A DNA stretch of 64,000 nucleotides from Chryseobacterium sp. (GTDB lineage: Bacteria > Bacteroidota > Bacteroidia > Flavobacteriales > Weeksellaceae): contig JBCNMJ010000001.1 in assembly GCA_039594975.1 (NCBI GenBank), forward strand, positions 20,402-84,401, written 5' to 3'. Below the pieces are notes generated by a model. That model ran no database searches. It saw only the letters and a list, made by a program, of their open reading frames with translations, and was not told the DNA's origin. Below, piece by piece: positions 20,945-44,474 of the stretch. Every line of letters begins with the position of its first letter. Positions within the stretch are counted from its first letter, which is position 1. The translations under genes and the position numbers were made by a program.

Positions 20945-20975
20945 ACTAACTATTTTTATTTAACTTTCTTTATTA

Positions 20976-21060
20976 GCCCCGATTGCAACGGCATCCTTTT
21001 TCTAAAATGGTTTGAAAAAAGCGCTGGCGAAAAAGATATAGTGGAAAGCGGGAAATAGCT
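20976..21060. repeat. Bacteroidota intergenic repeat element
   Basis: agccccgattgcaacggcatcctttt...aaaaagatatagtggaaagcggga with partly self-complementary ends; recognised from memory. Confidence 0.5.
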
Positions 21061-21106: not shown

Positions 21107-22624
21107 TTACAGCACTACTTTTTTAATTATCTCTATTGCAGATTTTCTGTCTTCCAAAGCATTCAGTACGTCGAAAATTTTGTCGGACCAACCTGCGATG
21201 AGGTATACATCATTTTTTCTGACATCCAACGGTTGTCTTCCATAACCTGCCAAATCAAAAATATACAATTTTGCATTCGGATTGATACTTTTATATCGAT
21301 TCCATGAATCTTCAAAAGAATTTCGGGTTCCGTTGCTGTTCCACATTTGCGTATCGGTGAATAACATTACTTTATCCACTTTTTCACGTCTGTTCAACAA
21401 ATCTTCAATCACCAAATAACCGTTTGTGGAATAACCTACCTCACCTTCTCTTTTATAGAAAGCATCTACGTTGGTCAAAATACCACTTTTCGGCATTGGA
21501 ACTCGTTTCCAAGTGTCACCGAACATACCTGTAATCACGTTTTTGCATTGTGACTGCAGCATCATCGACATCAGCAAACCGATATCATACAACAATACCT
21601 TGGATTTTGGGGAAACCGGCTGTTGCATCGAACCGGATACGTCTGCCGCGATCACAACCGAAGTATCAAAACCAAAACCTTTGATATTTTTCGCACTGAT
21701 CATCACTGCATTTTCCAATGCTTCCATGATGGATGAAGTATATTTTGAATCGATATTTTTCAATTCCCTATACGCTGCCAAAAATCTGAATGGTAATTGC
21801 TTTGAATTTCTCACCGCTTTTTCATCCGATAAATAACTGCATACTTTGTTCATTGCTTCCGGAGAAACGTTGGCTTCTAAAATATTTCTAAGATTTCGCA
21901 AAGTGGCCATATATCCCAATTTATTGCTGAAAATCAATTCTTCCCATTTGTTTTTGAAAGCTGATTTTCTTTCTGCTTCATTCGCAAATTTGGTCTGACC
22001 CAACACTGAAAGTTCAACTTCCCAGGTATATGGAGTTTCCAACGAATCGTTAACGATTTTGTTGAAAATGGCCTGTTGATTTTCATCTTTTGCTTTCGGG
22101 TGAACCAAAAACAAGGCATCTTTCAAGGTAACTTCTGCTTTTCTGTTGTATTTTGCGAACTGGTATTCATCAAATTTATTGAATGATTTTACCAAACCTT
22201 TCTGAATTTGTTTTGAAAGTTTGTTCAATTTTTTCAAATCCGTTCTTTCGTTGGCTAATTGGTAGTAAGCCAGCAATTCGGTGATTTCGTCCGCTCTTTG
22301 GATCACTCCATCAACGGTTCTGCTTACCAAATGTGTACCCGAAGCTCGTTTCGCCAATTCGGTTGTTAAAACCAATGGAATAGAGCGCAAATACATATCT
22401 TTTCTTGCATAAACCGCCAATTTTGCAACAAACTCAGGATCGTTTTTCTGAATCAGAGACTGGATTCTCGCCAATCTGTCATTTCCTTTTTCATAAGTTG
22501 TGTTCGATAATCCTGTTGTAACAACAGCACTGTACAATTCTTCTGCGGGCGTCATTGTGTAAGCCTTTGCACCTTCGTAGTTTGTTACTACTTTATTCTC
22601 TTTTCTTAAAAAATTAAATTTCAT
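21107..22624 (-). CDS. rsr: Ro60/TROVE domain RNA-binding protein with vWA domain
   Basis: TNYEGAKAY, KLAVYAR, RADE, AKYNRK, YMATLRNLRN, QLPFRFLAAY; vWA MIDAS DVSGSM; FTDTQ. Confidence 0.95.
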   Translation of the reverse strand: MKFNFLRKENKVVTNYEGAKAYTMTPAEELYSAVVTTGLSNTTYEKGNDRLARIQSLIQKNDPEFVAKLAVYARKDMYLRSIPLVLTTELAKRASGTHLVSRTVDGVIQRADEITELLAYYQLANERTDLKKLNKLSKQIQKGLVKSFNKFDEYQFAKYNRKAEVTLKDALFLVHPKAKDENQQAIFNKIVNDSLETPYTWEVELSVLGQTKFANEAERKSAFKNKWEELIFSNKLGYMATLRNLRNILEANVSPEAMNKVCSYLSDEKAVRNSKQLPFRFLAAYRELKNIDSKYTSSIMEALENAVMISAKNIKGFGFDTSVVIAADVSGSMQQPVSPKSKVLLYDIGLLMSMMLQSQCKNVITGMFGDTWKRVPMPKSGILTNVDAFYKREGEVGYSTNGYLVIEDLLNRREKVDKVMLFTDTQMWNSNGTRNSFEDSWNRYKSINPNAKLYIFDLAGYGRQPLDVRKNDVYLIAGWSDKIFDVLNALEDRKSAIEIIKKVVL

Positions 22625-32887: not shown

Positions 32888-33373
32888 TTACACCATCATA
32901 TCAGCACAATTTGAACTTGCGAATGCATACGGTTTTGCTTTAAATACATATCCCATTCCCAGAATATATCCCATGGCATCTTTCAAAGCAACATTGGATT
33001 TGAAATCCGGGTCTGTGTTAATGTCTGCGTGCACCTCCATTTCCACCCCGTAAGCATCCAGAACAGAGCAGATAGCGTATGCAATTTCTACGGATTTGTT
33101 CACCTCGTTCAGCATTCGTTCTTTGATACTGATAGTCTGTATTTCTCTTTCTTTTCTGATAAAGGTAAACGCTCCTTTTCCCTCACGAATAAAGACAACT
33201 GCCGTTGCATAATTGATAGCATCCCCATACACATGGGAATCTGATCCCACACATACTTTCAGTCGGTGGCCGTTTGCCTGTTCGCGGATGATGGCTTCTT
33301 CTACCAATTGTGTGATAGATTGTTGGAAAATTTTTCCGGTCATGTTCTGCCATGTTTGCTGTTGCGTTTCCAT
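32888..33373 (-). CDS. RNase H-like YkuK/DUF458 protein
   Basis: VCVGSDSHV, RMLNEV, EVHADIN, YAFASS..AD. Confidence 0.85.
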   Translation of the reverse strand: METQQQTWQNMTGKIFQQSITQLVEEAIIREQANGHRLKVCVGSDSHVYGDAINYATAVVFIREGKGAFTFIRKEREIQTISIKERMLNEVNKSVEIAYAICSVLDAYGVEMEVHADINTDPDFKSNVALKDAMGYILGMGYVFKAKPYAFASSNCADMMV

Positions 33374-33394
33374 TTTTTTAAGTTTTTTGTAAAC

Positions 33395-33697
33395 CTATTT
33401 TCTCATTTTTTTAATAGTGTTTACAGGTTTTACATTTGTTTTCAAACTATCTTTCTTTGTCAATTTTTCAGTGAATTCCACAACATCTGCCACATCTTTA
33501 GTGGATTTTATTGCTTTTACGACACTGAAGCTATTTTCACCTTCTTTTTCTAATGCATTCGCATTTTTCAGGTATCTTGTTTCCATCAGCATAGGTTCAG
33601 AAATATGAGCAACCCGTGTACTTGTTTTTATACAGCTTCTGGCTATAGCGATGAAGGACATCATACCTACCAGAATCATTTTTATTGTATCTTTCAT
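33395..33697 (-). CDS. Small hypothetical protein with hydrophobic N-terminus
   Basis: 100 aa from MKDTIK; the longer ORF-track start lies inside tRNA-Gln. Confidence 0.5.
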   Translation of the reverse strand: MKDTIKMILVGMMSFIAIARSCIKTSTRVAHISEPMLMETRYLKNANALEKEGENSFSVVKAIKSTKDVADVVEFTEKLTKKDSLKTNVKPVNTIKKMRK

Positions 33698-33733
33698 GGT
33701 TATTGTTTTTTGGTTATTAGTATGATTTACGTG

Positions 33734-33806
33734 TTGATTCATCAGGATTCGAACCTGAACAACAAGAGTCAAAGTCTTGCGTGCTGACCAGTTACACTAT
33801 GAATCA
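33734..33806 (-). tRNA. tRNA-Gln(TTG)
   Basis: TGATTCA/TGAATCA acceptor; CAAGA-CTTTGAC-TCTTG; TTCGAAT T loop. Confidence 0.9.
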
Positions 33807-33810
33807 ATTT

Positions 33811-33890
33811 ATGAGTAATGAGTAATAGGTAATTAGTAATATTTTTTGCGCATAGTTTATTTCTTATTGCACATTACTTATTGCTCATAT
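33811..33890. repeat. agtaat/attact spacer hairpin (further copies about 33977-34064 and 34231-34340)
   Basis: Tandem agtaat(g) units facing inverted attact units between tRNA genes. Confidence 0.6.
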
Positions 33891-33894
33891 TCTG

Positions 33895-33967
33895 TGGAAC
33901 AGACAGGAATCGAACCTGTACCTTTAGTTTTTCAGACTAACGTGCAGACCTGCTACACCACTCTTCC
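33895..33967 (-). tRNA. tRNA-Phe(GAA)
   Basis: TTAGT-CTGAAAA-ACTAA; ACAGG-TTCGATT-CCTGT; one G-G mismatch in the acceptor stem. Confidence 0.88.
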
Positions 33968-34068
33968 AAGTTTTATAGGTAATGGGTAATTAGTAATATT
34001 AGAATCATACTTCATTATCTGCGTTCGCAACAATTACTCATTGCTGATTACTCATTACCCATATTTTG

Positions 34069-34142
34069 TACCTCTCCCCAGATTCGAACTGGGACTTTAC
34101 GGGGTTTAAAGCCGTTTTCTCTGCCAATTGGAATAGAGAGGC
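34069..34142 (-). tRNA. tRNA-Leu(TAA), short variable loop
   Basis: Leu-type D arm TTC-CAATTGGCAGA-GAA; ACGGC-TTTAAAC-CCCGT; 5-nt variable loop. Confidence 0.75.
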
Positions 34143-34149
34143 ATTGTTG

Positions 34150-34223
34150 TACGGAAAGAGGGATTCGAACCCCCAAAACCTTGAGCCTAAATCAAGTGTG
34201 TCTGCCATTTCCACCATTCCCGC
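34150..34223 (-). tRNA. tRNA-Leu(TAG), short variable loop
   Basis: GTG-GAAATGGCAGA-CAC; CTTGA-TTTAGGC-TCAAG; 5-nt variable loop. Confidence 0.88.
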
Positions 34224-34442
34224 AAGTTTTATAAGTAATGAGTAATTGGTAATCAGTAATAAAAAAGCATGCTTTATAAATTCATAATTGATTATAACCA
34301 TCACAATAATTACTCATTGCACATTACTTATTACTCATATTTTAGGTCTGAGAAGGCTTGTCTGATTATAAACTATGCCTGTAATGTTTTTTTGTAAAGA
34401 TCTTCTGCGCTCGACAAAACCTTCTCTTTCCCTTTTAATCTG

Positions 34443-34515
34443 TACTCTATAAGGGAATCGAACCCTTATTTTCTGCTCGAAAGGCAGACGTCCTGAACCG
34501 TTAGACGAATAGAGC
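34443..34515 (-). tRNA. tRNA-Glu(TTC)
   Basis: TCTGC-CTTTCGA-GCAGA; AAGGG-TTCGATT-CCCTT. Confidence 0.92.
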
Positions 34516-34608
34516 ATTATTTTCGTGAATTCTGAATTCTCAATTTGCTTTGCAGTCAATCTTTAAATTTTTAAATTAATAATTGACTTATTCCCCATTC
34601 ACTTTTTG

Positions 34609-34680
34609 ACCATCTGACCAGGAGTCGAACCTGAACAACAAGAGTACATTTCCTGCATGCTGCCATTACATTATCAGCGG
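34609..34680 (-). pseudogene. Degenerate tRNA, Gln-like body with TGT at the anticodon position
   Basis: 20 nt identical to tRNA-Gln 33734-33806; loop AATGTAC lacks U33; bulged acceptor stem. Confidence 0.65.
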
Positions 34681-34685
34681 TGTGG

Positions 34686-34769
34686 TGGAAGCAGTAGGAT
34701 TCGAACCTACTCAGCAATAAAGCAACAGATTTACAGTCTGCCCCGGCTCTCCAACTCCGGCGTACTTTC
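34686..34769 (-). tRNA. tRNA-Tyr(GTA)
   Basis: GCAGA-CTGTAAA-TCTGT; long variable arm; encoded CCA. Confidence 0.92.
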
Positions 34770-34951
34770 GGTTTTCATGAGTGATAAGTAATTGGTAATG
34801 AGTAATATTTTTAATAATCTTCCAATTCTTAATTTTTAATTTCTTGTGAAGAAAAACAAAGCCTGTCTTTAATTTTTTATTTGATGTAAGAACTTCTGCG
34901 CTCGACAGACTTTTTCTTTTTCTTCGGAACTCATCTCATTTTAGTTCTTTG

Positions 34952-35084
34952 AGATGGTTATGGGATTATTCATAACCATTTTATTTTTTTATTTGAATTC
35001 ACGAATGTTTCACATTTCAAAACCCACTCAGCTTATGCAACGGTTTTGCAGGCCGCCCCGACTCTTCCACTTCGGCGAACCATC
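34952..35084 (-). tRNA. tRNA-Cys(GCA) interrupted in the T loop
   Basis: GATGGTT/AACCATC acceptor, U73, GCGGC-CTGCAAA-ACCGT, long variable arm; 58 nt instead of 7 between the T-stem strands. Confidence 0.7.
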
Positions 35085-35290
35085 GTTTTTTTATTGGTTG
35101 TTGGTTGATCGTTTTTAGATAAAATCACATTTCTAATTTCTAATTAAAAAATAAAGCCTATCTTAATTTCTATCATTTATCTCAAATTGAGTTAAGAAAA
35201 AGTTTGTCTATATTATATCGTGTTTTTGGCGTAAAGATCTTCTGCTCTTGACAAACCTTCTTTTTCTCTTTTGAAACAATTAACTTAGTA

Positions 35291-35375
35291 TGAATAGTGA
35301 ATTGTCAATTCGCTTCGCTGGTCAATTTTTAAATTCACTTGTAAAACAAAATTCACAATTGACTATTCACATTTT
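35291..35375. repeat. About 85-bp palindromic spacer element (further copies 35676-35760 and 35848-35924)
   Basis: tgaat(a/g)gtgaattgtcaat...attcac(a/t)attgac(t/c)attca with terminal inverted repeats. Confidence 0.8.
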
Positions 35376-35377
35376 CG

Positions 35378-35449
35378 TCTGGAAAGCAAGATTCGAACTT
35401 GCGACCTCCCGCGTCCAAGACGGGTAAACAACCACCGTTATCTTTCCAG
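35378..35449 (-). tRNA. tRNA-Pro(TGG)
   Basis: CCCGT-CTTGGAC-GCGGG; GCAAG-TTCGAAT-CTTGC; atypical D arm. Confidence 0.85.
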
Positions 35450-35517
35450 TTTTGCAGATTCACTTCAATTTTCTTTTCCGAGAGACAGTCGGATTCGAAA
35501 TTTTCCGTAAATCTTTG

Positions 35518-35589
35518 CGGTCTATGCGAGAATCGAACTCGCAGTGCCCGAGAGACAGTCGGGAAGGTTAACCATTACCTCAATAGACC
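35518..35589 (-). tRNA. tRNA-Asp(GTC)
   Basis: GGTCTAT/ATAGACC, G73; CCCGA-CTGTCTC-TCGGG. Confidence 0.92.
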
Positions 35590-35594
35590 TTTTG

Positions 35595-35668
35595 TGATTC
35601 CGACAGGGATCGAACCTGTAACCCTGGATTTAGAAAACCCATGCTCTATCCAATTGAACTACGGAACC
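35595..35668 (-). tRNA. tRNA-Arg(TCT)
   Basis: TGGGT-TTTCTAA-ATCCA; ACAGG-TTCGATC-CCTGT. Confidence 0.92.
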
Positions 35669-35761
35669 TTTTACGTGAATGGTGAATTGTCAATCCGCTT
35701 TGCTGGTCAATTTTTAAACTCACTTGTGAAGCAAAATTCACTATTGACCATTCACATTTTG

Positions 35762-35835
35762 TAATCCCAGAAGGACTCGAACCTTCAACCTTCGACGTAT
35801 CAGGTCGACGCTCCAACCAATTGAGCTATGAGATT
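35762..35835 (-). tRNA. tRNA-Ile(GAT)
   Basis: TCGAC-CTGATAC-GTCGA; GAAGG-TTCGAGT-CCTTC. Confidence 0.92.
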
Positions 35836-35925
35836 GTATTTTTGTTGTGAACGGTCAATTGTCAATTCGCTTTGCTTGTCAATTTACTTGTGAAACAAAA
35901 TTCACTATTGACCATTCATATTTTG

Positions 35926-35997
35926 GGTATCTCCGGGGATCGAACCCTGTTCTTCGGTTCCACAGACCGACGCTTTACCAAATAAGCTAGAGAAACC
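35926..35997 (-). tRNA. tRNA-His(GTG)
   Basis: G-1 and C73; TCGGT-CTGTGGA-ACCGA; T arm appears one nt short. Confidence 0.85.
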
Positions 35998-35999
35998 AT

Positions 36000-36030
36000 A
36001 AAAAAAGCGCCTCTTTTCGGGAGGCGCTTT
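36000..36030 (-). terminator. Attenuator terminator immediately upstream of the tRNA array
   Basis: aaagcgcctc-ccgaaaa-gaggcgcttt followed by a U tract ending 2 nt before tRNA-His. Confidence 0.85.
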
Positions 36031-36053
36031 ATATTTTTAGACGTGTCAGTTCA

Positions 36054-36191
36054 TTAGCTGACCCATGTATATAAGCACCTTTTTTCCCAAAATTCACTAT
36101 CAAGAAGAATAATATAAGCATATCCCTGCCCCTTCGGCTCTTGCCCATGTAATCTTGAATGTGGATTAGATATGTTATTAAATTGTTTCAT
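36054..36191 (-). CDS. 45-aa leader peptide of the tRNA/RNA-repair operon
   Basis: MKQFNNISNPHSRLHGQEPKGQGYAYIILLDSEFWEKRCLYTWVS; its 3' codons are complementary to the terminator 5' arm. Confidence 0.65.
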   Translation of the reverse strand: MKQFNNISNPHSRLHGQEPKGQGYAYIILLDSEFWEKRCLYTWVS

Positions 36192-36516
36192 TTTATTTCT
36201 TGTTTTAAAAAGTTCTTTTGAAAGGCTTGAAAACTTGTTGCTTTCAATTTTCGGTTGCAAAGTAAGGATGAAATTTTTTAACTCGCAAATTTATTTTTCA
36301 ATTAACTATTTGATAATCAATAAATTAAATCTAATTTTCAGAATAGAAAATTTCTGTCCGCAATACTTTGCAGATACCTTAAATACCTAAATGACTGTCT
36401 CTCATCGGGTTATTGATCACGCTCTATTTCTTTATTAATTGTTCATTTGTTATTAAATAATTTTCATTTTTATGGTTATTTTTTTTCATTCTAAATAATT
36501 TCTGCTCTAAAAACAC

Positions 36517-36546
36517 AAAAAACGCCCCGAAAATCGAGGCGTTCTT
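36517..36546 (-). terminator. Intrinsic terminator after the second leader ORF
   Basis: aagaacgcctcg-atttt-cggggcgtttttt on the minus strand. Confidence 0.75.
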
Positions 36547-36574
36547 ACTATATTTTGATAAAATTCTTACGGGT

Positions 36575-36703
36575 TTATTGTAAATAATTTCCAAAGCAAG
36601 CACATTCCGCCTCATCTGATATCATGTATTCATATCCGAACGATCCCTTTAGTACAGGGCGATCGCATAGATTTAAACTGATATGTGCTCTTTGTATTGT
36701 CAT
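36575..36703 (-). CDS. 42-aa putative leader peptide
   Basis: MTIQRAHISLNLCDRPVLKGSFGYEYMISDEAECACFGNYLQ; TATCTTTG -7 box at 36717-36724. Confidence 0.5.
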   Translation of the reverse strand: MTIQRAHISLNLCDRPVLKGSFGYEYMISDEAECACFGNYLQ

Positions 36704-36900: not shown

Positions 36901-37920
36901 TCAATTCCTAAACATCTTATTTCTTCCTGTCTTATACCTCGAAATATCTTTCAAAATAATCTCATCATCGGGATTGAAATGTTTCAGTTCATTTACAATT
37001 TCGGAACGGCTGTTGATGTTTTCAGCAATAATGCTGTAAGCAATCTCCCTTGTAGATTTCCGTAGCCGCTGATCTTTTTTAAATTCAATTTTCATCACTT
37101 CCAGATAGATCAGTTTTTTATCCAAAGGAGTTTCTATATACAAATGCTGAATCTCTTTTTCCAGTGTATTGATTTCAGAAATATTTGAAAAATAAGTATT
37201 AAGGCTATTAAGAGCTTCTTTATTTTCTCTCCAGCCTTGAAGCAAAACCTTTTGAGCCTTTTCCGGGGATTCCATTTTGTTTCGGTATATCAAAGATGCT
37301 TTTACCATCTGATGACTCTGTATATAATCATCAACTACCATCTGATAAAATACAAGCGCATTCTCAAGATCGTTGATCTCTTTATATAAGTCTCCGACTT
37401 TTTCTTTTTGCTGAAGCTCCTTATATAGTGTAATGGCTTTATCATATTGTTTTGCTTTCACATAACAATTGGCAGCATCTACTTTACTTTGTACTTTTTT
37501 AAGAAAAACAACGGCGGCTTCATTATAAAATCCTCCTTGCTCCAGCGTTGAAGCAGCACGATAATTATCTTTTAAGAGGTTCATATAAACGATAGCAGCT
37601 TTTTTATATTCACCATCCTCTATATGCTTTCTGGCAATGTCTTCATACATGCTTCTAAGTTTATCAAACAAAGAAGTATCTATATAAGAACCACTTCCTC
37701 CATAATTTTTTCTTGCCGGCGGTTGCGGATCTTTTTCCTGATTCTGAAGAATAACAATAAGCACGATGGCAATGGCGGCAAAGAATATAAACTTGAATAC
37801 ACTTCCCAAAATATTTTCCAGATTCATTCTGGATGATTGGGCAATAATAGCAATTACCTTAAAAATCACGAGAATAAAAAAGGCCGTCAGAAACTTTTCT
37901 AAGAACTTTTGCTTTCTCAT
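36901..37920 (-). CDS. TPR-containing component of the MoxR-vWA (bpX-type) system
   Basis: Two N-terminal TM segments; TPR-like repeats (YKKAAIVY, AANCY, KVGDLY). Confidence 0.7.
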   Translation of the reverse strand: MRKQKFLEKFLTAFFILVIFKVIAIIAQSSRMNLENILGSVFKFIFFAAIAIVLIVILQNQEKDPQPPARKNYGGSGSYIDTSLFDKLRSMYEDIARKHIEDGEYKKAAIVYMNLLKDNYRAASTLEQGGFYNEAAVVFLKKVQSKVDAANCYVKAKQYDKAITLYKELQQKEKVGDLYKEINDLENALVFYQMVVDDYIQSHQMVKASLIYRNKMESPEKAQKVLLQGWRENKEALNSLNTYFSNISEINTLEKEIQHLYIETPLDKKLIYLEVMKIEFKKDQRLRKSTREIAYSIIAENINSRSEIVNELKHFNPDDEIILKDISRYKTGRNKMFRN

Positions 37921-39602
37921 TTTTTCCCTGGTTTTAAAATGTTGTCATCTTCACTAAATAAACGGTACAGGAGAATGACCACTCCTATTATCAACAGCCA
38001 TACCAGCCAATTGTATCCGAAAGAATTGATAAGCGGATAGAAAATATACAGTAAGGTAACAACTAAAATGGCGATCAAAATCAGTTTGATTCCGTCTGAC
38101 ACATATTTCCCTCCCATGTATAAAGGCTTTTTTCGCACAAAATATGAATAGAATGCCATTATTCCGACAGCAGCAAGTAATAACCAAACCACTTCTGAAA
38201 TTGAAATCTCCTTTTTCACACGGATATCCTGTGCAGCATTCAAAGCATCTTTTCCTGCATTTTCATTAAACATGATTTGAGGATCTGTTTCATGGGAAGT
38301 TCCATAAATTCTGGCCAGGGAATCTCTGAGTAGTCTTTTCCTGATTTCCAGAACATCATCTGCATACAACATCTTTGATCCTTCGGACATTTTGCTTGAA
38401 GAATCTTTCATGATAGAATCCAGGATTTTTTTATGATAATTCTTTGTCTTGATCTCTACGACCTGATCTATTTTTTTCAGGTACATTTTTTTCAATGAGT
38501 CCCGGAACTTTTTCTCTTTGACCCTATACTTTTCAATCTGCCACAGCATTTCCGCTTTTCCCTCTTTGGTGTTGGCAGCCCGCTTGTAATCACTGATCAG
38601 CCAACTTCTCTCATTTCCAAATAAAGAGTCTACTTTTCTGTCGATATCCGTAAATCCGGATTCGAACACCAAGCCTTCTTCGTTTTCTGTATGAGAGTTT
38701 TTTCCAATGGTATTTTCACTGTACGAATCTGCAGAGAGTTCCTGTTCTTGTCTTGCCTGATTTCTCCCAAAATCAATTGCAAAAATAATAATCACGATAA
38801 TGGCTAGAAAAAGAGCAAAGCCCTTCTGTTTACCAGTCATTTTACCTATTGGATTAGTTTCTCCCGAAGTGTTTTCATTGTTTCCTCCTAAACTTCCAAA
38901 CATTCCCCAATCAAAATTTCCGAAACCGCCTCGTAAAGCAGAATGAATATCTAACGGAATTCCCAGATAAACGGCACGTTCAGGATATTTTTTTAAATAT
39001 TCGATGTATTTCAAAATTTCATTCTGATCTCCTGCTTTTAATTTTTCCATATCAAATGGTAGATTTTTCATCCATTCTTCATCGGTTATAGGATTCAGAA
39101 GATCATTCAGTAGTTCATCATCATTCATATCCACTTTATAACTTCGGATCTTTTGCGGAATGAAAACTCCGTTTGAAGGCTTTTTGACTTTGGCTTCTGT
39201 TTGAGGAGATTCCTGTAACAATAAGACCCAATCTATTGCTTCATTTAATTTCACCAAACCGAAATCAGGATGCATAATGATATATTTTGCATCTATATTT
39301 TTCCAGTCATCAGAAGTTATTTTAGGATAAAAATCTGTATTTTCAGGAATAAACAATTTACTGTCAAAGTATTGAAAATATGAGTTCTTACCGATTTGTT
39401 CCGGCGCATATCCTTCAAAAACAATGAAACAACCGTAAAGAAGATTCGGCTCAAGAGAAGGAATGGCAAATGACTGTACTGCATTAAGATCTATTTCCAG
39501 CAATTCTATTTCGCGAAACCATACCAAAGGTGAAGCGCCTCTAATGAGAAGCCCTCTTTTGGGATAACTATTTTTCGGAAACGGCCTAATCTTCAACTCC
39601 AT
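37917..39602 (-). CDS. bpX-type domain plus membrane-anchored component
   Basis: Overlapping start/stop with neighbours; one central and three C-terminal TM segments. Confidence 0.6.
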   Translation of the reverse strand: MELKIRPFPKNSYPKRGLLIRGASPLVWFREIELLEIDLNAVQSFAIPSLEPNLLYGCFIVFEGYAPEQIGKNSYFQYFDSKLFIPENTDFYPKITSDDWKNIDAKYIIMHPDFGLVKLNEAIDWVLLLQESPQTEAKVKKPSNGVFIPQKIRSYKVDMNDDELLNDLLNPITDEEWMKNLPFDMEKLKAGDQNEILKYIEYLKKYPERAVYLGIPLDIHSALRGGFGNFDWGMFGSLGGNNENTSGETNPIGKMTGKQKGFALFLAIIVIIIFAIDFGRNQARQEQELSADSYSENTIGKNSHTENEEGLVFESGFTDIDRKVDSLFGNERSWLISDYKRAANTKEGKAEMLWQIEKYRVKEKKFRDSLKKMYLKKIDQVVEIKTKNYHKKILDSIMKDSSSKMSEGSKMLYADDVLEIRKRLLRDSLARIYGTSHETDPQIMFNENAGKDALNAAQDIRVKKEISISEVVWLLLAAVGIMAFYSYFVRKKPLYMGGKYVSDGIKLILIAILVVTLLYIFYPLINSFGYNWLVWLLIIGVVILLYRLFSEDDNILKPGKK

Positions 39603-41982
39603 ATTCCAATACTTGATCTATAAAAGGTTGTAAGTAATCTTCACACATTTCTTTAAGCGTTCTCACTTTAAGCAAAGTATGATCCGGTAAAAAATATTCT
39701 GCTCCCCCAAATTCTGTCTCTGTAGCCAATGCCATGACAGTATTTACAGTAGTCGACATATAAAATTCCGGAATATGACCATTCATACTTCTGAAAGTGA
39801 GCATTCCACGGGAATCCGCAATGATTTCGCTTCCGTCTGAAAATGTAAATTTATTTTTATTCTGATGTGCCACTACAAAGAACGGAGATTGGTTTTTAAA
39901 TAAATAAATAGTGGCGCCCCAGATACTCAGTTCATTTTTAGAAACGACCAGATTACGATTTTCATTAATGCCGATATGGATAAAATTACTGATAAATTTA
40001 TAACTGTTATGCTGGAGTTTCTCGACCTCAATTTTTACTTTTTCTATATTTTTAGCAATTTCAGGATCATTTTTCACAATTTCTAAAGAAACCTCACCTT
40101 CCAGATTGATCTCAAAAATGGTTGGTAAACTACTTTGATGCAGGTAAAAATGTCTGTTAAAATATACCAGCTCCATATTCAGCGGGACCTCAAAACCGGA
40201 TACATTCAGTTCAGAATATTCTTTTGTTTCAATATTAAGTTTTGAAACCAGGCTTTTATCCGGCCGATACTGGCACAGAATAAATTGTTGCTGCTTATTT
40301 TTAGCTAGGGCAAATATTCCTTTATCCTTTACAGAAATCCCTTCAAACAAAACTTCACAGCCCCTCAAGGTACTGTATATGCTATAGTAATTCTTGTTAT
40401 AATAATTATCCGAGAGATAAGTTCTCAACAATTGTTTTTTACTGCTTAGAATAAAAAATTCCCCTTCATACATAAACTTCGCAATTTTCTGCTGCGGAGT
40501 TGGAAAAAGCAAAGGATAATTGAGAGGAACATCTGTTTTCCCGCCTTTAGTACTCTGGCTGATTGTTCTTTTAGCTTTTCTATACGGAGGATCCTCCCAA
40601 AGTTCTTTCAACGGAAGCAGAATTTTTTGGATATGTTTTCTTGCTCCTAAATGATGTTTATAAAAATTAAGTTCTCCATCGGCAGAGGTGGTTACTAAAA
40701 ATTTTAACCGGTTTCTGTTTTCATGAATGACTTTCTGAAGATTTTCATTGGCTAAATTTTCATGATTGGTGATAAAGAACACTTCTATATCTTTTTCTGA
40801 ACGTTCTTTTTTGAAAAATAAATCTAAAGTTTCCGAAACATCCAATGTTCCGCTTACCAGATTCAGGTTTTCAATGACATCTTCCACCCGATCCAGTGTC
40901 ATCACAATACTGGATTGTCCTAAAGCATAGACTTTACACTCAGAGTGCGCTTTCGGGTGTTTGATAACGGCTAGTGCTGAAGCAAAAGACAAGACTTTGG
41001 GAGTTCCCCAGTTTTTCAGGGAAGTATCTATAAGGATAATTCTTTCGAAAACATTTTCTTCCGGCGGTATTTCCCTTTGGATATATAAAGCTTCATTATT
41101 GGCTACCCGGTTCATAAAAACCTCATCTTCATTCGCAAATTCCGACAGCAGCATTCTGTGGAGATCTCCTTTATTCGCAATATCTGAAACTCCACCAATC
41201 GGCTGTTCTCCTGGAGAAAGATGCCGCATCGGGATTTTAAGTCCGCTCCAGATCCTTTTAATTAAACTTCCTACCTGAAATGTTTTAGGTTCTTCAATTA
41301 GCTCCTGAATAAAATCTTTTTCAGGTTCTGTATTAGTTTTTTCTTCAGTTATTTCTTCTTTTATTTCCAGCTCACCCACCCAACCCTGCATGGCTTTTAT
41401 AATGGATTCAGTAGTTGGAAATTTATTGTAAACCCTTGATAATGCCTCAATATCTTTATAGAACACATCATGGGTAAGCAATAATTTATGGGCTGCATCG
41501 CCAATTTTTTGTGGACCTCTGTAATAGGTGGTCAAAATATATTCAGATTCTTCTGCAGAAAGCGAGTAAACCGAATCTTTAAAAAGAGTCTGAAAAAGAT
41601 TGATCCTGTTTTGTCCTTTCTTCATTGAGACACCAACTTTACTAAGATTTTCCAGCAGCTGACAGGCGTTTGCAATATCAAGATTGAAGGTACTTGTTTC
41701 CTCTGTTCTTAATTTTCTCAAAAAGTAGAAAATACCGTCAAGATTGAGATAGCCTTCCTGAGTTGCATACATTGTAAGAAGAAAAGCACCGAAAGGTGGG
41801 AAACCCTCCGGCTGAAGTTCTTTCAAAACTTCAATGATATAAGGTCTGTAAGCAATTACCCCTACATTCGGAACGGAGACTAGATTATTCTCAAGATATC
41901 CGGAAGGATCACGAACATCCTTATCTGTGATCCATTCCCAGAAATAATTTTCGTACGATTGAAAATAACTTACTAAATCCAT
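39586..41982 (-). CDS. bpX0-like plus vWA plus beta-rich C-terminal component
   Basis: GFPPFGAFLL; GDLHRMLLSEFA...EALY typical of MoxR-associated vWA; IILIDTS. Confidence 0.7.
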   Translation of the reverse strand: MDLVSYFQSYENYFWEWITDKDVRDPSGYLENNLVSVPNVGVIAYRPYIIEVLKELQPEGFPPFGAFLLTMYATQEGYLNLDGIFYFLRKLRTEETSTFNLDIANACQLLENLSKVGVSMKKGQNRINLFQTLFKDSVYSLSAEESEYILTTYYRGPQKIGDAAHKLLLTHDVFYKDIEALSRVYNKFPTTESIIKAMQGWVGELEIKEEITEEKTNTEPEKDFIQELIEEPKTFQVGSLIKRIWSGLKIPMRHLSPGEQPIGGVSDIANKGDLHRMLLSEFANEDEVFMNRVANNEALYIQREIPPEENVFERIILIDTSLKNWGTPKVLSFASALAVIKHPKAHSECKVYALGQSSIVMTLDRVEDVIENLNLVSGTLDVSETLDLFFKKERSEKDIEVFFITNHENLANENLQKVIHENRNRLKFLVTTSADGELNFYKHHLGARKHIQKILLPLKELWEDPPYRKAKRTISQSTKGGKTDVPLNYPLLFPTPQQKIAKFMYEGEFFILSSKKQLLRTYLSDNYYNKNYYSIYSTLRGCEVLFEGISVKDKGIFALAKNKQQQFILCQYRPDKSLVSKLNIETKEYSELNVSGFEVPLNMELVYFNRHFYLHQSSLPTIFEINLEGEVSLEIVKNDPEIAKNIEKVKIEVEKLQHNSYKFISNFIHIGINENRNLVVSKNELSIWGATIYLFKNQSPFFVVAHQNKNKFTFSDGSEIIADSRGMLTFRSMNGHIPEFYMSTTVNTVMALATETEFGGAEYFLPDHTLLKVRTLKEMCEDYLQPFIDQVLEYGVED

Positions 41983-42716
41983 TCTCTAGCTTTTTGAGTC
42001 AGACGGAAAGAGCTTACGGATAAGATTCTGAAATCATCTTTATTTATAGGTAAATAACTTCCGTTTTCATCCCATAGCAACCATTTATCGGACTCTATGT
42101 TATATTTTTTCTGTAGTAATGAGCTTACGTTTTTAAATTCAAAATCATATCCGCTCGGCAAAAGATGATGATCCTTTATCCAAAAAGTTTTTCCAGGAAA
42201 GCTTAATAAAGGAGTGCCAAGAAATAAAGCCTTATCATCCACAGTCATCCATTGTAATTTTTCCAGTTTAAATTTCGGAATCTCTATGATCTTATCTTTA
42301 ATATCATCAATGGAACATAAAAGTGCAGCAGCAGGAAATTCATGCTCTCCTTTTTTAAGATGCACTTCAATCTTTTCATCAACTCCAAAAAAATTATGAT
42401 TGGACGGAGGAAGGGATAATTTCAATGCCTTATCAATGGGTGACCAAAGTAAAGCCGTTCTTACTTTCTTACTTGGAACCAAAGCATTCCTTCTGAATAA
42501 AAGCCCGTTCTTTAGTTCATATATGATAAAATTAGGGAGTTTCTTAACTTCTGATGAAACTGCCTGTTCAAGACTAAAGCCTTTTAACCAAATACGATCA
42601 TCATCTGCCGCGATCTGAATATTTTTCCAGTCGCGGACAGCTCCTAAAGCGTATTCATCTTTTCGAGGAATTTCTGCCCAAAATTCTTTTAAGCGCTCTG
42701 AAGAATCTTCTGCCAT
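41973..42716 (-). CDS. bpX2-like component
   Basis: LGAVRDW..IWLKG and LFLGTPLLSFPG; position next to MoxR. Confidence 0.6.
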   Translation of the reverse strand: MAEDSSERLKEFWAEIPRKDEYALGAVRDWKNIQIAADDDRIWLKGFSLEQAVSSEVKKLPNFIIYELKNGLLFRRNALVPSKKVRTALLWSPIDKALKLSLPPSNHNFFGVDEKIEVHLKKGEHEFPAAALLCSIDDIKDKIIEIPKFKLEKLQWMTVDDKALFLGTPLLSFPGKTFWIKDHHLLPSGYDFEFKNVSSLLQKKYNIESDKWLLWDENGSYLPINKDDFRILSVSSFRLTQKAREWI

Positions 42717-43822
42717 AAGCTTTCAATTTCTTTTTGAATAAACTGTTTCTGCTCTGCGTTGGCAATCCAGTCGCAACGGGTTTGAAGATATCTCAGCTTA
42801 TCCTTAATCACGTTTTGTTCCTCAAAGCTGAGTCCTCCTGTTTCCCACTGATCAATCAGAATTTTCACATCCTTCATTACTTCTTCGGGATTTGGAGTTT
42901 TATTCTGTAAGGATTGTGGATGAGACTTCGGATTAGTGTCTTTTTCAATAGTCCGATTGATAATTCCTTCCAGAATTTCAATTTGTTCCTCTGTATCCCA
43001 AATATGTTTCAGTACCCACAAATCTGATAGTATAGCTTCGTTTCTTCCGCAAATCAAAGCACTTGCAGCAATAAGGTTCTGCATTTTAACAGCTCTACGG
43101 TCTGAAATGGTAATTCCTGTATTCCGGAGACTAATGATCGTATTAAGATATACCTCATAGATCGGCTTTAGATCAACCGTTTTACATAACGCCTGAAGAT
43201 CTTTGATTTCATGGGCTAAAATCACAGGAATATCTGAATCTGTTGTTGTTTCAAGTTTTCTTCCGGCCAAAAGAACCTGCTGAAGAAGATTGGGATTGAC
43301 ATAACCTACATTAATTCTTACTAAAAAGCGATCGAAAAGAGCATTCAGTGCTTCATCTTCAGGAAGAACATTACTTGCACCTACGAACATCAGTGCGGGA
43401 AGATGTTTGGTTTCTTTACCTCTTTTGAAAATCTTTTCATTTAAAGCCATCAATAGGGAATTCAGAATTGCAGAATTGGCATTGAAAATTTCATCTAGAA
43501 ATACCATTGAAGCTTCCGGCATCATCCCTTCTGTATTCGTTAATAGCTCACCTTCTTTTAATTTTCTGATATCAAAAGGACCAAAAATTTCAGTCGGTTC
43601 TGTAAATCTGGTGAGAAGATATTCGAAATTTTTCCCGTCTTTTACGGTTTTTGCCAGTGTTCTTACGAGAGCTGATTTTGCGGTTCCGGGAGGGCCGTAT
43701 AAAAATGCATTTTCTCTTGCCAGCAAACAGATTCCCAATAAATCCACTACATCGTTTTTACCGACAAATGTATTTTTTACGTAGTTAAGAACATTATTTA
43801 ATTTATCAATATTTTGAGTCAT
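42689..43822 (-). CDS. MoxR/RavA-type AAA+ ATPase
   Basis: GPPGTAKS, YLLTRFTEP.EIFGP, FLDEIF, GASN, ALFDRF. Confidence 0.93.
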   Translation of the reverse strand: MTQNIDKLNNVLNYVKNTFVGKNDVVDLLGICLLARENAFLYGPPGTAKSALVRTLAKTVKDGKNFEYLLTRFTEPTEIFGPFDIRKLKEGELLTNTEGMMPEASMVFLDEIFNANSAILNSLLMALNEKIFKRGKETKHLPALMFVGASNVLPEDEALNALFDRFLVRINVGYVNPNLLQQVLLAGRKLETTTDSDIPVILAHEIKDLQALCKTVDLKPIYEVYLNTIISLRNTGITISDRRAVKMQNLIAASALICGRNEAILSDLWVLKHIWDTEEQIEILEGIINRTIEKDTNPKSHPQSLQNKTPNPEEVMKDVKILIDQWETGGLSFEEQNVIKDKLRYLQTRCDWIANAEQKQFIQKEIESLWQKILQSA

Positions 43823-44474
43823 TATGATCCGTATTATTTATTTTTAATTCTTTCCAGAAAGCATTTTTATACCATCCGAATTCTGCAGTCAATAATTTAT
43901 GGATATAAGGAATTTCCGCCAATCTGTATATTTTATTGTCTACAATTCTTTCAAGATAAAGTTTTCTGTAGGTTGTATCTTTCAGCTCTTCCTCCCATTT
44001 CAGATGTTCCAATTCTATATCTGCTTCAATTCCGGAATAGTGGAATTGTTTTAAAATCGTTTCAAGTAATACAATCAAAGGGTCATCTGCATCTACATTT
44101 TTCAAAGCGACCACAATCTGTGGTAAAAACCTCAATGAAAGATCTGCGGATAGCTTTGCAGAAAGGTCAAACTTTCCTTTAAACTCAGGAATCAGTTTTG
44201 CAAGATCTTTTTCCGTATTTTCCCGAACAAGATAAAGCTGAACACTATGATAAAGGATTTTTGCCGCCCAAACTGCTGCTGCTTTATCAAACGGAATCTG
44301 ATCAGATAAGAACTCCAGTCTTTCTTTTTCAAATTCGGTTTCAAAATATTCTGCCGCTTCCTGTTCCTCTTTTAATGAAATTTGTTTTACATCCGCAAAA
44401 ATGGTGATGCATTCTTCTTGCCGGAGCAGAAATAAAGTAGCTAAAAATGGTGATCTGGTTTCCATCATAAACAA
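43806..44474 (-). CDS. bpX4-like component
   Basis: SADLSLRFLP motif, YLERI; first gene of the operon. Confidence 0.65.
   Translation of the reverse strand: MFMMETRSPFLATLFLLRQEECITIFADVKQISLKEEQEAAEYFETEFEKERLEFLSDQIPFDKAAAVWAAKILYHSVQLYLVRENTEKDLAKLIPEFKGKFDLSAKLSADLSLRFLPQIVVALKNVDADDPLIVLLETILKQFHYSGIEADIELEHLKWEEELKDTTYRKLYLERIVDNKIYRLAEIPYIHKLLTAEFGWYKNAFWKELKINNTDHNDSKY

Follow-up and report, generated by a model that had tools for sequence, protein, structure and literature searches.

In the classical leader-peptide attenuators of Proteobacteria (trp, his, leu, thr, and pheA), a short leader open reading frame (ORF) and an intrinsic terminator precede the regulated genes, RNA close to the ORF can form an alternative helix with the 5′ arm of the terminator, and the stop codon is placed for masking by the ribosome. 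The same arrangement is found in a stretch of 64,000 nucleotides (nt) from Chryseobacterium sp. (GenBank assembly GCA_039594975.1, contig JBCNMJ010000001.1, positions 20,402 to 84,401 of the forward strand), referred to here as the window, in which a 45-codon leader ORF and a terminator stand directly ahead of an array of tRNA genes. Classical attenuators carry runs of codons for one amino acid and control biosynthetic enzymes, whereas this flavobacterial leader contains nearly all 20 amino acids, each one to four times, and precedes tRNAs and RNA-repair genes. They also differ in what is expected when translation is absent: super-attenuation in the classical systems and read-through here, where no clear 1:2 helix was found. 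No relationship to the classical systems, in sequence or in Rfam families, was found. The absence of a regulatory-codon cluster is a departure from the classical subtype, not from the mechanism. In classical attenuators a single codon responds only weakly to mild starvation, and to our knowledge the well-studied leader-peptide attenuators all read one amino acid or drug class and control enzymes or resistance genes.

The closest functional analogue of a general translation-stress upstream ORF is toiL, in the topAI-yjhQ locus of E. coli (PMC12121999). Like the present element, toiL is proposed to answer to many translation stresses through stalls at different positions, and it gates a stress or conflict locus. 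It does so by opening the topAI ribosome-binding site, preventing Rho-dependent termination inside topAI (PMC12121999), whereas the flavobacterial output is an intrinsic terminator before tRNAs, and the two share no sequence similarity. In the leaders of B. subtilis vmlR (PMC9226507), bmrCD (PMC4191407), and mef/mel (PMC4335068), stalling on a leader ORF likewise shifts terminator/antiterminator folding and induces the downstream genes; these leaders serve resistance factors in Firmicutes, respond to particular drug classes, and have not been reported to hold full amino-acid alphabets. A counterpart for the target is the Anabaena trn operon, a tRNA array that is induced by translational stress, co-regulated with RtcB, and repressed by TrcR (PMC8421152, PMC10272220). 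It resembles the present locus in being an accessory many-tRNA array that is silent by default, linked to an RNA ligase (RtcB in Anabaena; Rnl2 in the window and RtcB in its distant relatives), and proposed to act in translation rescue. However, the trn operon is under a transcriptional repressor, and PMC8421152 mentions no leader peptide, attenuator, or terminator. The array has 11 tRNAs in the window and 2–19 in relatives, and across these loci the neighboring genes include Rnl2, RtcB, PrfH-like, AlkB-like, and RNase T-like genes. T-box riboswitches also choose between terminator and antiterminator according to the condition of the tRNA pool, but they bind one specific uncharged tRNA and need no ORF; the flavobacterial element has a conserved frame, and the T-box model (RF00230) had no match at its gathering threshold over the window or at E ≤ 1 over 35900-36600. 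For the element as a whole, 4227 Rfam models gave no family match over the window at the gathering threshold or in a permissive scan (E ≤ 1) of 35900-36600, and the best non-tRNA scores were terminator-driven (STnc370 with 31.2 bits against a gathering threshold of 54; Phe_leader with 20.5 against 55). In full-text literature searches, no account of tRNA arrays preceded by a leader-peptide attenuator came up, and the paper on the ternary conflict system that adjoins this locus does not discuss tRNA arrays.

An earlier note on the window had pointed to a 45-codon ORF containing all 20 amino acids, to a terminator whose U tract ends 2 nt before tRNA-His, and to pairing of the R-C-L-Y codons of the ORF (36080-36069) with the terminator 5′ arm (36034-36022) over about 12 base pairs (bp) with one bulge. 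Each of these was confirmed. The parts of the leader, in the order of transcription, are:

36258..36289, minus strand: Bacteroidetes-type promoter, assigned from the published consensus TTTG / TAnnTTTG (TTTG at 36289-36286, 20-nt spacer, TTACTTTG at 36265-36258)
36227..36247, minus strand: P1, 5′ hairpin of the leader RNA (UUGAAAGC-loop-GUUUUCAA), from the RNAalifold consensus
36054..36191, minus strand: leader ORF, ATG, 44 codons, and TAA, peptide MKQFNNISNPHSRLHGQEPKGQGYAYIILLDSEFWEKRCLYTWVS
36068..36083, minus strand: predicted antiterminator 5′ strand, an invariant block AAAAGGTGCTTATATA with its pairing core at 36080-36069
36045..36062, minus strand: P3, small hairpin predicted by folding (GUCAG-CUAAUGAA-CUGAC), with the stop codon in its loop
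36022..36034, minus strand: predicted antiterminator 3′ strand, which is the terminator 5′ arm (AUAUAAAGCGCCU)
36000..36030, minus strand: intrinsic terminator, 10-bp stem and 7-nt loop (36030-36004) and U7 tract (36006-36000)
33733..35997, minus strand: tRNA array of 11 genes (His, Ile, Arg, Asp, Pro, Tyr, Glu, Leu, Leu, Phe, Gln)

Transcription would start at about 36253-36250, some 60 nt upstream of the first AUG. Translation in Flavobacteriia starts largely without Shine-Dalgarno pairing, and the leader ORF begins with the first ATG in the transcript, which has A-rich surroundings. Its peptide has 20 distinct residues, with methionine solely as initiator, at most four copies of any residue, and no tandem runs; a cluster of regulatory codons for one sensed amino acid is not present in it. 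The terminator (AAAGCGCCUC-CCGAAAA-GAGGCGCUUU, 36030-36004) has a predicted stability of -15.4 to -15.9 kcal/mol, and its T7 run (36006-36000) is followed by AT and then by tRNA-His from 35997. The core of the antiterminator, AGGUGCUUAUAU (36080-36069), and AUAUAAAGCGCCU (36034-36022) form a 12-bp helix that includes a single G-U pair and a single bulged A. Its duplex energy is -13.3 kcal/mol; when the 211-nt upstream leader is dinucleotide-shuffled, 1.7% of the shuffled sequences do at least as well. The complete antiterminator fold is predicted at -17.5 kcal/mol, as against -15.9 for the terminator, and is the centroid structure of the leader. P3 may form the top of the antiterminator structure or else serve as a pause hairpin for RNA polymerase, and the conservation of this stop-codon hairpin is compatible with a pause element. 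Neither folding nor alignment of the leader gave a clear conserved upstream partner for the antiterminator strand (a 1:2 anti-antiterminator). Taken alone, the features of the window's own leader are unusual but not overwhelming.

The earlier note had read these features as ribosome-dependent attenuation and had called for a search of orthologous leaders. That reading is supported by comparison, as the ORF, its start, the position of its stop, the terminator, and the complementarity are kept in about 60 loci of divergent flavobacteria. Because the leader ORF is essentially unannotated (a homology search with the peptide returned only two near-identical unnamed proteins among 5.8 billion), its conservation was established at the DNA level. 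Using the neighboring 339-amino-acid (aa) protein as anchor, and not the leader, 38 Chryseobacterium loci were gathered. The promoter, first-ATG ORF, and terminator, an element of about 250 nt, stand ahead of the array in 35 of the 38; of the remaining three, one contig is truncated, another ends at the locus, and the third locus has no array. In 32 of these 35 loci the array opens with tRNA-His, and in Chryseobacterium the U tract lies just 2–10 nt from it. The anchor protein is only 57–62% identical in most Chryseobacterium species, yet blocks of the leader are invariant or pair-preserved among 36 sequences: TTTG-N20-TTACTTTG, P1, the first ATG, AAAAGGTGCTTATATA, and the terminator. As the central part of the ORF is free to vary, the species have had time enough to diverge, and the invariant blocks reflect constraint. 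Across the aligned leaders TTACTTTG and its spacing are invariant, and TTTG is present wherever the locus extract extends far enough. In the RNAalifold consensus, P1 has 99% of its cells paired and contains one compensatory pair (G-C in 23 sequences and A-U in 13), and the terminator likewise has one (G-C in 30, G-U in 4, A-U in 2). The block AAAAGGTGCTTATATA is unchanged in 36/36 sequences, synonymous sites included, and its nucleotides are kept even in three loci that read it in a +1-shifted frame. Over the 36 sequences, pairing of the antiterminator strand to the terminator arm is retained in 98.8% of cells. The only change in this arm, G to A in two loci (L018 and L019), turns the antiterminator G-U into A-U, and the terminator 3′ arm compensates.

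Several features of the ORF point to translation. The frame is open in all 36 leaders (38–45 codons), whereas the other two frames contain 59 and 199 stops, and every leader starts at its first ATG. Indels of 12, 6, 9, and 3 nt within the ORF are all in frame. In three loci (L021, L022, and L032) the frame is shifted by a +1 insertion ahead of the antiterminator block and restored by a -1 deletion behind it, leaving the end of the ORF nearly unmoved. Variation is equal at the three codon positions, with minor-allele fractions of 0.134, 0.133, and 0.141 at positions 1, 2, and 3. In-frame indels, equal substitution at the three positions, and an antiterminator block that keeps its nucleotides in a shifted frame are the signature expected where the act of translation and the RNA sequence are conserved but the peptide is not, and they argue, on evolutionary grounds, that the ORF is translated.

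More distant loci were reached through the RNase H-like gene on the 3′ side of the array, which also has arrays ahead of it in Psychroserpens luteolus, in a metagenome-assembled genome of Flavobacteriaceae, and in many metagenomic contigs. An automated search was made for an ATG-initiated ORF ending shortly before a hairpin and T-run, upstream of the first tRNA. Of the further loci with an array and a sufficient length of sequence, 24 of 26 had the unit, as opposed to 3 of 45 homologous loci without an array (Fisher's exact P = 1.6e-13); the three array-less positives have an ordinary composition. The leaders of Psychroserpens and of several metagenomic Flavobacteriia have the same architecture and are mutually unalignable, as seen in examples from different lineages (MQNTRHISSKTEWMQDPQCLEANFYGRKNFQRWLYLAFS; MQNYLQHIIQYMIWSLEPKRIEVIFSCDAGLNIYYRKVIDT; MRLSAIHTGDRPNQHKSFEINLCDENQFVREKTVFR; MPEQRQHKRFTNLMRNDLLSLSICYWHTLINRNGIPSGNQYNSKNIRPCVLT). 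The gap between stop codon and hairpin is 20–33 nt, with a mean of 24, in 28 units. Among 13 units of different lineages, the stop codon lies within a small hairpin in 9, and in 3 a hairpin begins at or just after the stop; the hairpin of L039a is weak and no better than shuffles. In some distant loci the terminator is 150–450 nt from the first tRNA. Psychroserpens-type loci have tandem pairs of leader-ORF/terminator units ahead of one array, each with its own complementary tail and arm:

L039, 4269-4449 and 4695-4873: tandem leader units
L059, 3665-3846 and 4090-4265: tandem leader units

Since these sequences have changed between lineages, the features they share appear to be maintained, not merely inherited. 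The complementarity between ORF and terminator was compared across lineages by pairing the last 32 nt of the ORF with the terminator 5′ arm, taking as nulls both shuffles of these 32 nt and every other 35-nt window of the locus concerned. Each of nine lineages fell in the tail (P of 0.0015–0.04 against shuffles and 0.002–0.12 against genomic windows), and Fisher combined P values over the nine were 5e-12 and 1.4e-10, respectively; these statistics assume independent lineages, although a remote common origin is probable. Within the ORF, the strand that complements this arm is found 4–35 nt before the stop. The paired sequences differ from lineage to lineage, examples being AGGUGCUUAUAU/AUAUAAAGCGCCU, AGGUGCUU/AAGCGCCU, AGGACGUUUUGUAU/AUAUGAAGCGUCC, GUUGCGGGGC/GCCCCGCAG, GGAAGGU/ACCUUCC, GAGGUG/CACCUC, and CGACCGG/CCGGUCG. 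The complementary strands thus change together, a form of covariation at the lineage level. Mimicry of Shine-Dalgarno and anti-Shine-Dalgarno sequences, suggested by a purine-rich strand with AGGUG and an arm containing CCUCC, was rejected, as other lineages use CGACCGG/CCGGUCG or AGGACGUUUU/AAGCGUCC.

The amino-acid alphabet of the leaders is also unusual. Within the window, one of 61 ATG-ORFs of 40–50 codons holds all 20 residues, and it is the leader ORF; among 45-residue windows of real proteins the share is 0.065% for the window's own proteins and 0.31% when the proteins of all loci are included. All 36 Chryseobacterium leaders have 17–20 distinct residues in 38–45 codons (mean 18.9, counts that are not independent owing to shared ancestry), as compared to 15.5–15.9 in real-protein windows of the same length. 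The unalignable lineages have 16–20 distinct residues, all but one 18–20, in 29–60 codons. Against real-protein windows the combined P is 5.9e-9, or 3.5e-8 when restricted to seven conservative lineages; against small ORFs on the strand opposite the leaders it is 1.4e-7, or 7.8e-7 for the seven. Because pairing dictates part of the composition of the ORF tail, the comparison was repeated with only those codons whose occupancy of the ribosomal A site leaves the antiterminator free. The enrichment persists (combined P = 8e-8) and is clearest in L040 (18 residues in 25 codons), L039b (19 in 30), and L058 (17 in 24). The presence of all 20 residues is therefore a tendency of the family, which the window's copy attains in part through its tail. 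Matching of leader codons to array anticodons was also tried and is not discriminating, as arrays cover about 17 amino acids.

These findings are best accommodated by a ribosome-dependent transcription attenuator that probably heads the tRNA-array operon, keeping it off while translation is healthy and turning it on when ribosomes stall or are absent. Transcription would begin at the conserved promoter, and ribosomes would translate the leader ORF, whose last third (AGGUGCUUAUAU) is able to pair with the 5′ arm of the terminator before tRNA-His. A ribosome following close behind the polymerase would reach the end of the ORF, cover the AGGUGCUUAUAU strand, and melt the stop-codon hairpin; with that strand covered, the terminator would form and transcription would end before the tRNAs. 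As the stop lies 20–33 nt before the hairpin, the terminating ribosome would mask the antiterminator strand and not the terminator. If the ribosome had stalled earlier, or none had loaded, the antiterminator would form once the terminator 5′ arm had been made, and polymerase would read into the array and on through the neighboring RNase H-like gene at the least. The stop-codon hairpin may hold the polymerase until the ribosome arrives, or may cap the antiterminator. Read-through is expected when the ribosome is stalled early or absent because the antiterminator is made before the terminator and is no less stable. Likewise, with no anti-antiterminator found upstream, the operon should be on by default when translation is lacking, unlike trp.

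Because nearly every amino acid is present once or a few times, with no run of a single residue, such a leader would report general translation capacity. It would respond to loss of any tRNA species, to ribosome damage, and to translation inhibitors, rather than to one amino acid; it should be a poor sensor of mild limitation for a single amino acid and a good one for complete loss of a tRNA species or a global slowdown. Sensing of severe loss fits the reserve tRNAs, ligase, and exonucleases downstream and the conflict system upstream. We entertain, with some reserve, a joint reading in which the leader is selected to contain essentially every amino acid, so that catastrophic loss of any tRNA species or a block in elongation or ribosome supply would release divergent reserve tRNAs and repair enzymes. 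The tRNA loss in this joint reading might come about through anticodon nucleases of phages, of competitors, or of the cell's own adjacent MoxR-vWA system, and the whole might form an immunity-coupled recovery circuit, conserved across Flavobacteriia and so far undescribed. What is new in the proposed attenuator is not its physics, which are known, but its sensor logic, its target, and its phylum. The sensor appears to be built for the whole decoding system and to control tRNA genes themselves, and its neighbors are a predicted conflict system and RNA ligases; the phylum is one in which little is understood of gene regulation or of how translation is initiated. If correct, this would explain how accessory tRNA arrays are silenced and deployed on demand, tie tRNA-targeting warfare to a dedicated recovery response, offer a natural reporter of translation health for Bacteroidota, and constitute evidence that transcription and translation are coupled there. 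Being short and conserved, the element is readily addressed by reporter fusions.

A number of observations weigh against these interpretations. Taken one lineage at a time, the pairing P values are modest (0.002–0.12, and 0.00–0.34 with whole-leader shuffles). No two-sided changes were seen in the antiterminator helix within Chryseobacterium, so that covariation rests on the unalignable lineages, where the lineage-level covariation makes up for those missing changes. One array (L057) directly follows a protein gene and has no leader, and in L111 the homologous frame lacks an ATG. We know of no study of transcription-translation coupling in Flavobacteriia. A search of sequencing runs turned up no dedicated Chryseobacterium transcriptome, only low-depth Logan contigs from host or metagenome RNA runs, two of which span the terminator and tRNA-His; in addition, a 6.4-kb contig of depth 162 from metatranscriptome run X47 covers the leader, terminator, and whole array of a C. 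indologenes-like strain (L022 7542-8700). The former are compatible with read-through RNA or contaminating DNA alike, and the latter may represent high expression with read-through or DNA carry-over; neither was used as evidence. For the wider alphabet, the sensing part of the window's leader has 16 distinct residues in 32 codons (P = 0.25). Cysteine, threonine, valine, and tryptophan are confined to the last 13 codons, a non-sensing tail because a ribosome stalled there would cover the antiterminator, and methionine is confined to the initiator. The earlier note's claim that a shortage of any amino acid would be sensed is thus overstated for this copy, while the recurrence of near-complete alphabets across lineages speaks for its substance.

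Of the other explanations considered, one deserves more weight than the rest, though we find it doubtful: the near-complete alphabet may be a by-product, and the attenuator may answer only to global ribosome availability or speed. Four of the 20 residues in the window's leader occur only in a tail dictated by RNA pairing (KRCLY from AAAAGGUGCUUAUAU), single codons are weak sensors of mild starvation, and the Chryseobacterium counts share one ancestry. Enrichment is nevertheless found in unalignable lineages and in the pre-antiterminator codons alone, and it holds both against windows of real proteins and against random small ORFs of the same genomes. A different possibility leaves the attenuator out altogether. 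The ORF and terminator could constitute an independent small gene, for a small protein or a small RNA, with the array expressed through unregulated leakage or internal promoters. The unit has its own promoter and terminator, the distant terminators and tandem units described above would suit such a gene, and one homologue is a called gene, with two database proteins. Against it, there is no protein-like purifying selection, with variation equal at the three codon positions, and the peptide cannot be aligned from one lineage to another, while a frameshift across its tail is tolerated. The unit is moreover tied to arrays (24/26 versus 3/45), the conserved complementarity of ORF tail and terminator arm would have no role in a plain gene, and the 2–10 nt between U tract and tRNA-His in Chryseobacterium leave no space for a promoter. 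A strict scan for TTTG-N17-22-TAnnTTTG found no internal promoter in the array, but it also misses the slightly off-consensus promoter of the leader itself and so cannot exclude one. On balance an independent gene seems improbable.

It is about equally improbable that the switch is real but set by a factor acting in trans (a protein, such as that of the adjacent YkuK-family gene or conflict system, a small molecule, or, by analogy with T-boxes, an uncharged tRNA), with translation incidental. The long invariant blocks (P1, ORF codons 1–9, and AAAAGGTGCTTATATA) could serve as binding sites for such a factor, and a YkuK-family gene is always adjacent and extremely conserved. However, an open frame in 36/36 leaders, in-frame indels, and a compensated frameshift would be unexpected if translation were irrelevant, and no riboswitch, T-box, or leader family of Rfam matched, the best relevant score being that of Phe_leader noted above. 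Distant lineages furthermore keep the ORF, stop-hairpin, and terminator geometry without any common sequence block. The logic could also be reversed, such that translation promotes read-through, stalling promotes termination, and expression of the array follows high translational activity; by one such route, the ribosome would melt the stop-codon hairpin and allow another fold to form. The direction of the switch is something we infer, and a stop codon lying inside a hairpin in most lineages implies that the ribosome remodels this region. Yet the ribosome would cover the antiterminator strand, 4–35 nt before the stop, and not the terminator, which starts 20–33 nt beyond the stop and outside the ribosomal footprint; moreover, in the absence of ribosomes the antiterminator matches or exceeds the terminator in stability and is the first of the two to be transcribed. 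We regard reversal, including this route, as very unlikely, and retain attenuation relieved by stalling as the probable reading.

The window has a G+C content of 35%, its genes have their closest matches in Chryseobacterium species (90% protein identity), and all features relevant here are on the minus strand. Those surrounding the leader and array are:

36901..44474, minus strand: MoxR-vWA-beta-propeller ternary conflict system (bpX4, bpMoxR, bpX2, bpX0/bpX1, bpX3, and the TPR-like 339-aa gene), from Pfam matches
36518..36546, minus strand: predicted intrinsic terminator closing the conflict operon and isolating the leader promoter
35924-35836, 35760-35669, and 35376-35290, with similar sequence near 34600-34520, minus strand: hairpin spacers of about 90 nt within the array
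32888..33694, minus strand: 99-aa ORF and RNase H-like gene of the YkuK family (DUF458, PF04308; 32888-33373)
32415-31852, minus strand: DinB_2 gene (Pfam)
31847-30831, minus strand: Rnl2-type RNA ligase (Pfam)
30832-30808, minus strand: terminator at the end of the ligase gene
30503-29354, minus strand: two RNase T-type exonucleases (Pfam)
29324-29296, minus strand: terminator after the exonucleases

The conflict system is a transcription unit separate from the leader, with its own terminator at its end. Between that operon and its terminator is a 26-nt perfect inverted repeat on the minus strand (GATGCTTCAGCTTCGTTCAGCATGAC / GTCATGCTGAGCGAAGTCGAAGCATC, at 36863-36838 and 36802-36777), which looks like a repetitive extragenic palindromic (REP)-type element. 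Downstream of the leader, the array tRNAs score low against the general tRNA covariance model (45–68 bits). No terminator is predicted between the array and the 99-aa ORF and YkuK-family gene, which are probably co-transcribed with it. In fact, on the minus strand no intrinsic terminator is predicted from 36004 to that at the end of the ligase gene; a gap of 470 nt lies upstream of the DinB gene, and control by the leader may extend past the RNase H-like gene to the RNA-repair module of ligase and exonucleases. The YkuK-family gene is 88–99% identical among Chryseobacterium species, whereas the 339-aa gene on the other side of the leader is only about 60% identical, and it also lies 3′ of tRNA arrays in distant Flavobacteriia. 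This conservation points to very strong constraint or to exchange, and possibly to a role in processing of the array RNA.

Arrays of the related loci contain 2–19 tRNAs and differ strongly in content between species. Ala, Gly, and Val tRNAs are nearly always missing from Chryseobacterium arrays (one tRNA-Ala, in L043) and are present in L059. Repair genes at distant array loci encode RtcB, an RF-1-family (PrfH-like) protein, an AlkB-like 2OG-Fe(II) oxygenase, an Rnl2 ligase, and a HIRAN protein, in these stretches:

L039, 7600-9652: repair genes
L041, 1403-4269: repair genes
L040, 7556-8876: repair genes

The pairing of array with repair genes is general, while the adjoining conflict system is not. 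In two of the distant loci (L077 442-626 and L089 591-787), small peptides (e.g., MKFLLGVLIIRFIVEAVAGKKK...) are encoded between the leader terminator and the array; they have a hydrophobic N-terminus and a charged C-terminus, each with its own terminator, and are reminiscent of type I toxins.

Within the window's array, the spacers of about 90 nt are copies of a repeat with long inverted repeats (GTGAATGGTCAAT...ATTGACAATTCACCATTCAC) that lies between many of the tRNAs. As the same tRNAs are just 5–10 nt apart in other species, these spacers look like insertions, either miniature inverted-repeat transposable element (MITE)-like elements or processing hairpins, that are gained and lost. A separate motif, GAAGGTTTTGTCGAGCGCAGAAGATCTTTAC, occurs in three copies on the minus strand (35260-35231, 34910-34886, and 34424-34394) in tRNA-free stretches of the array; in other species these stretches carry Glu, Met, Asn, and Cys tRNAs. 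Elsewhere in the window, a Flavo-1 RNA (RF01705, 63.6 bits) is found on the plus strand at 20971-21059, adjoining a gene at 21107-22624.

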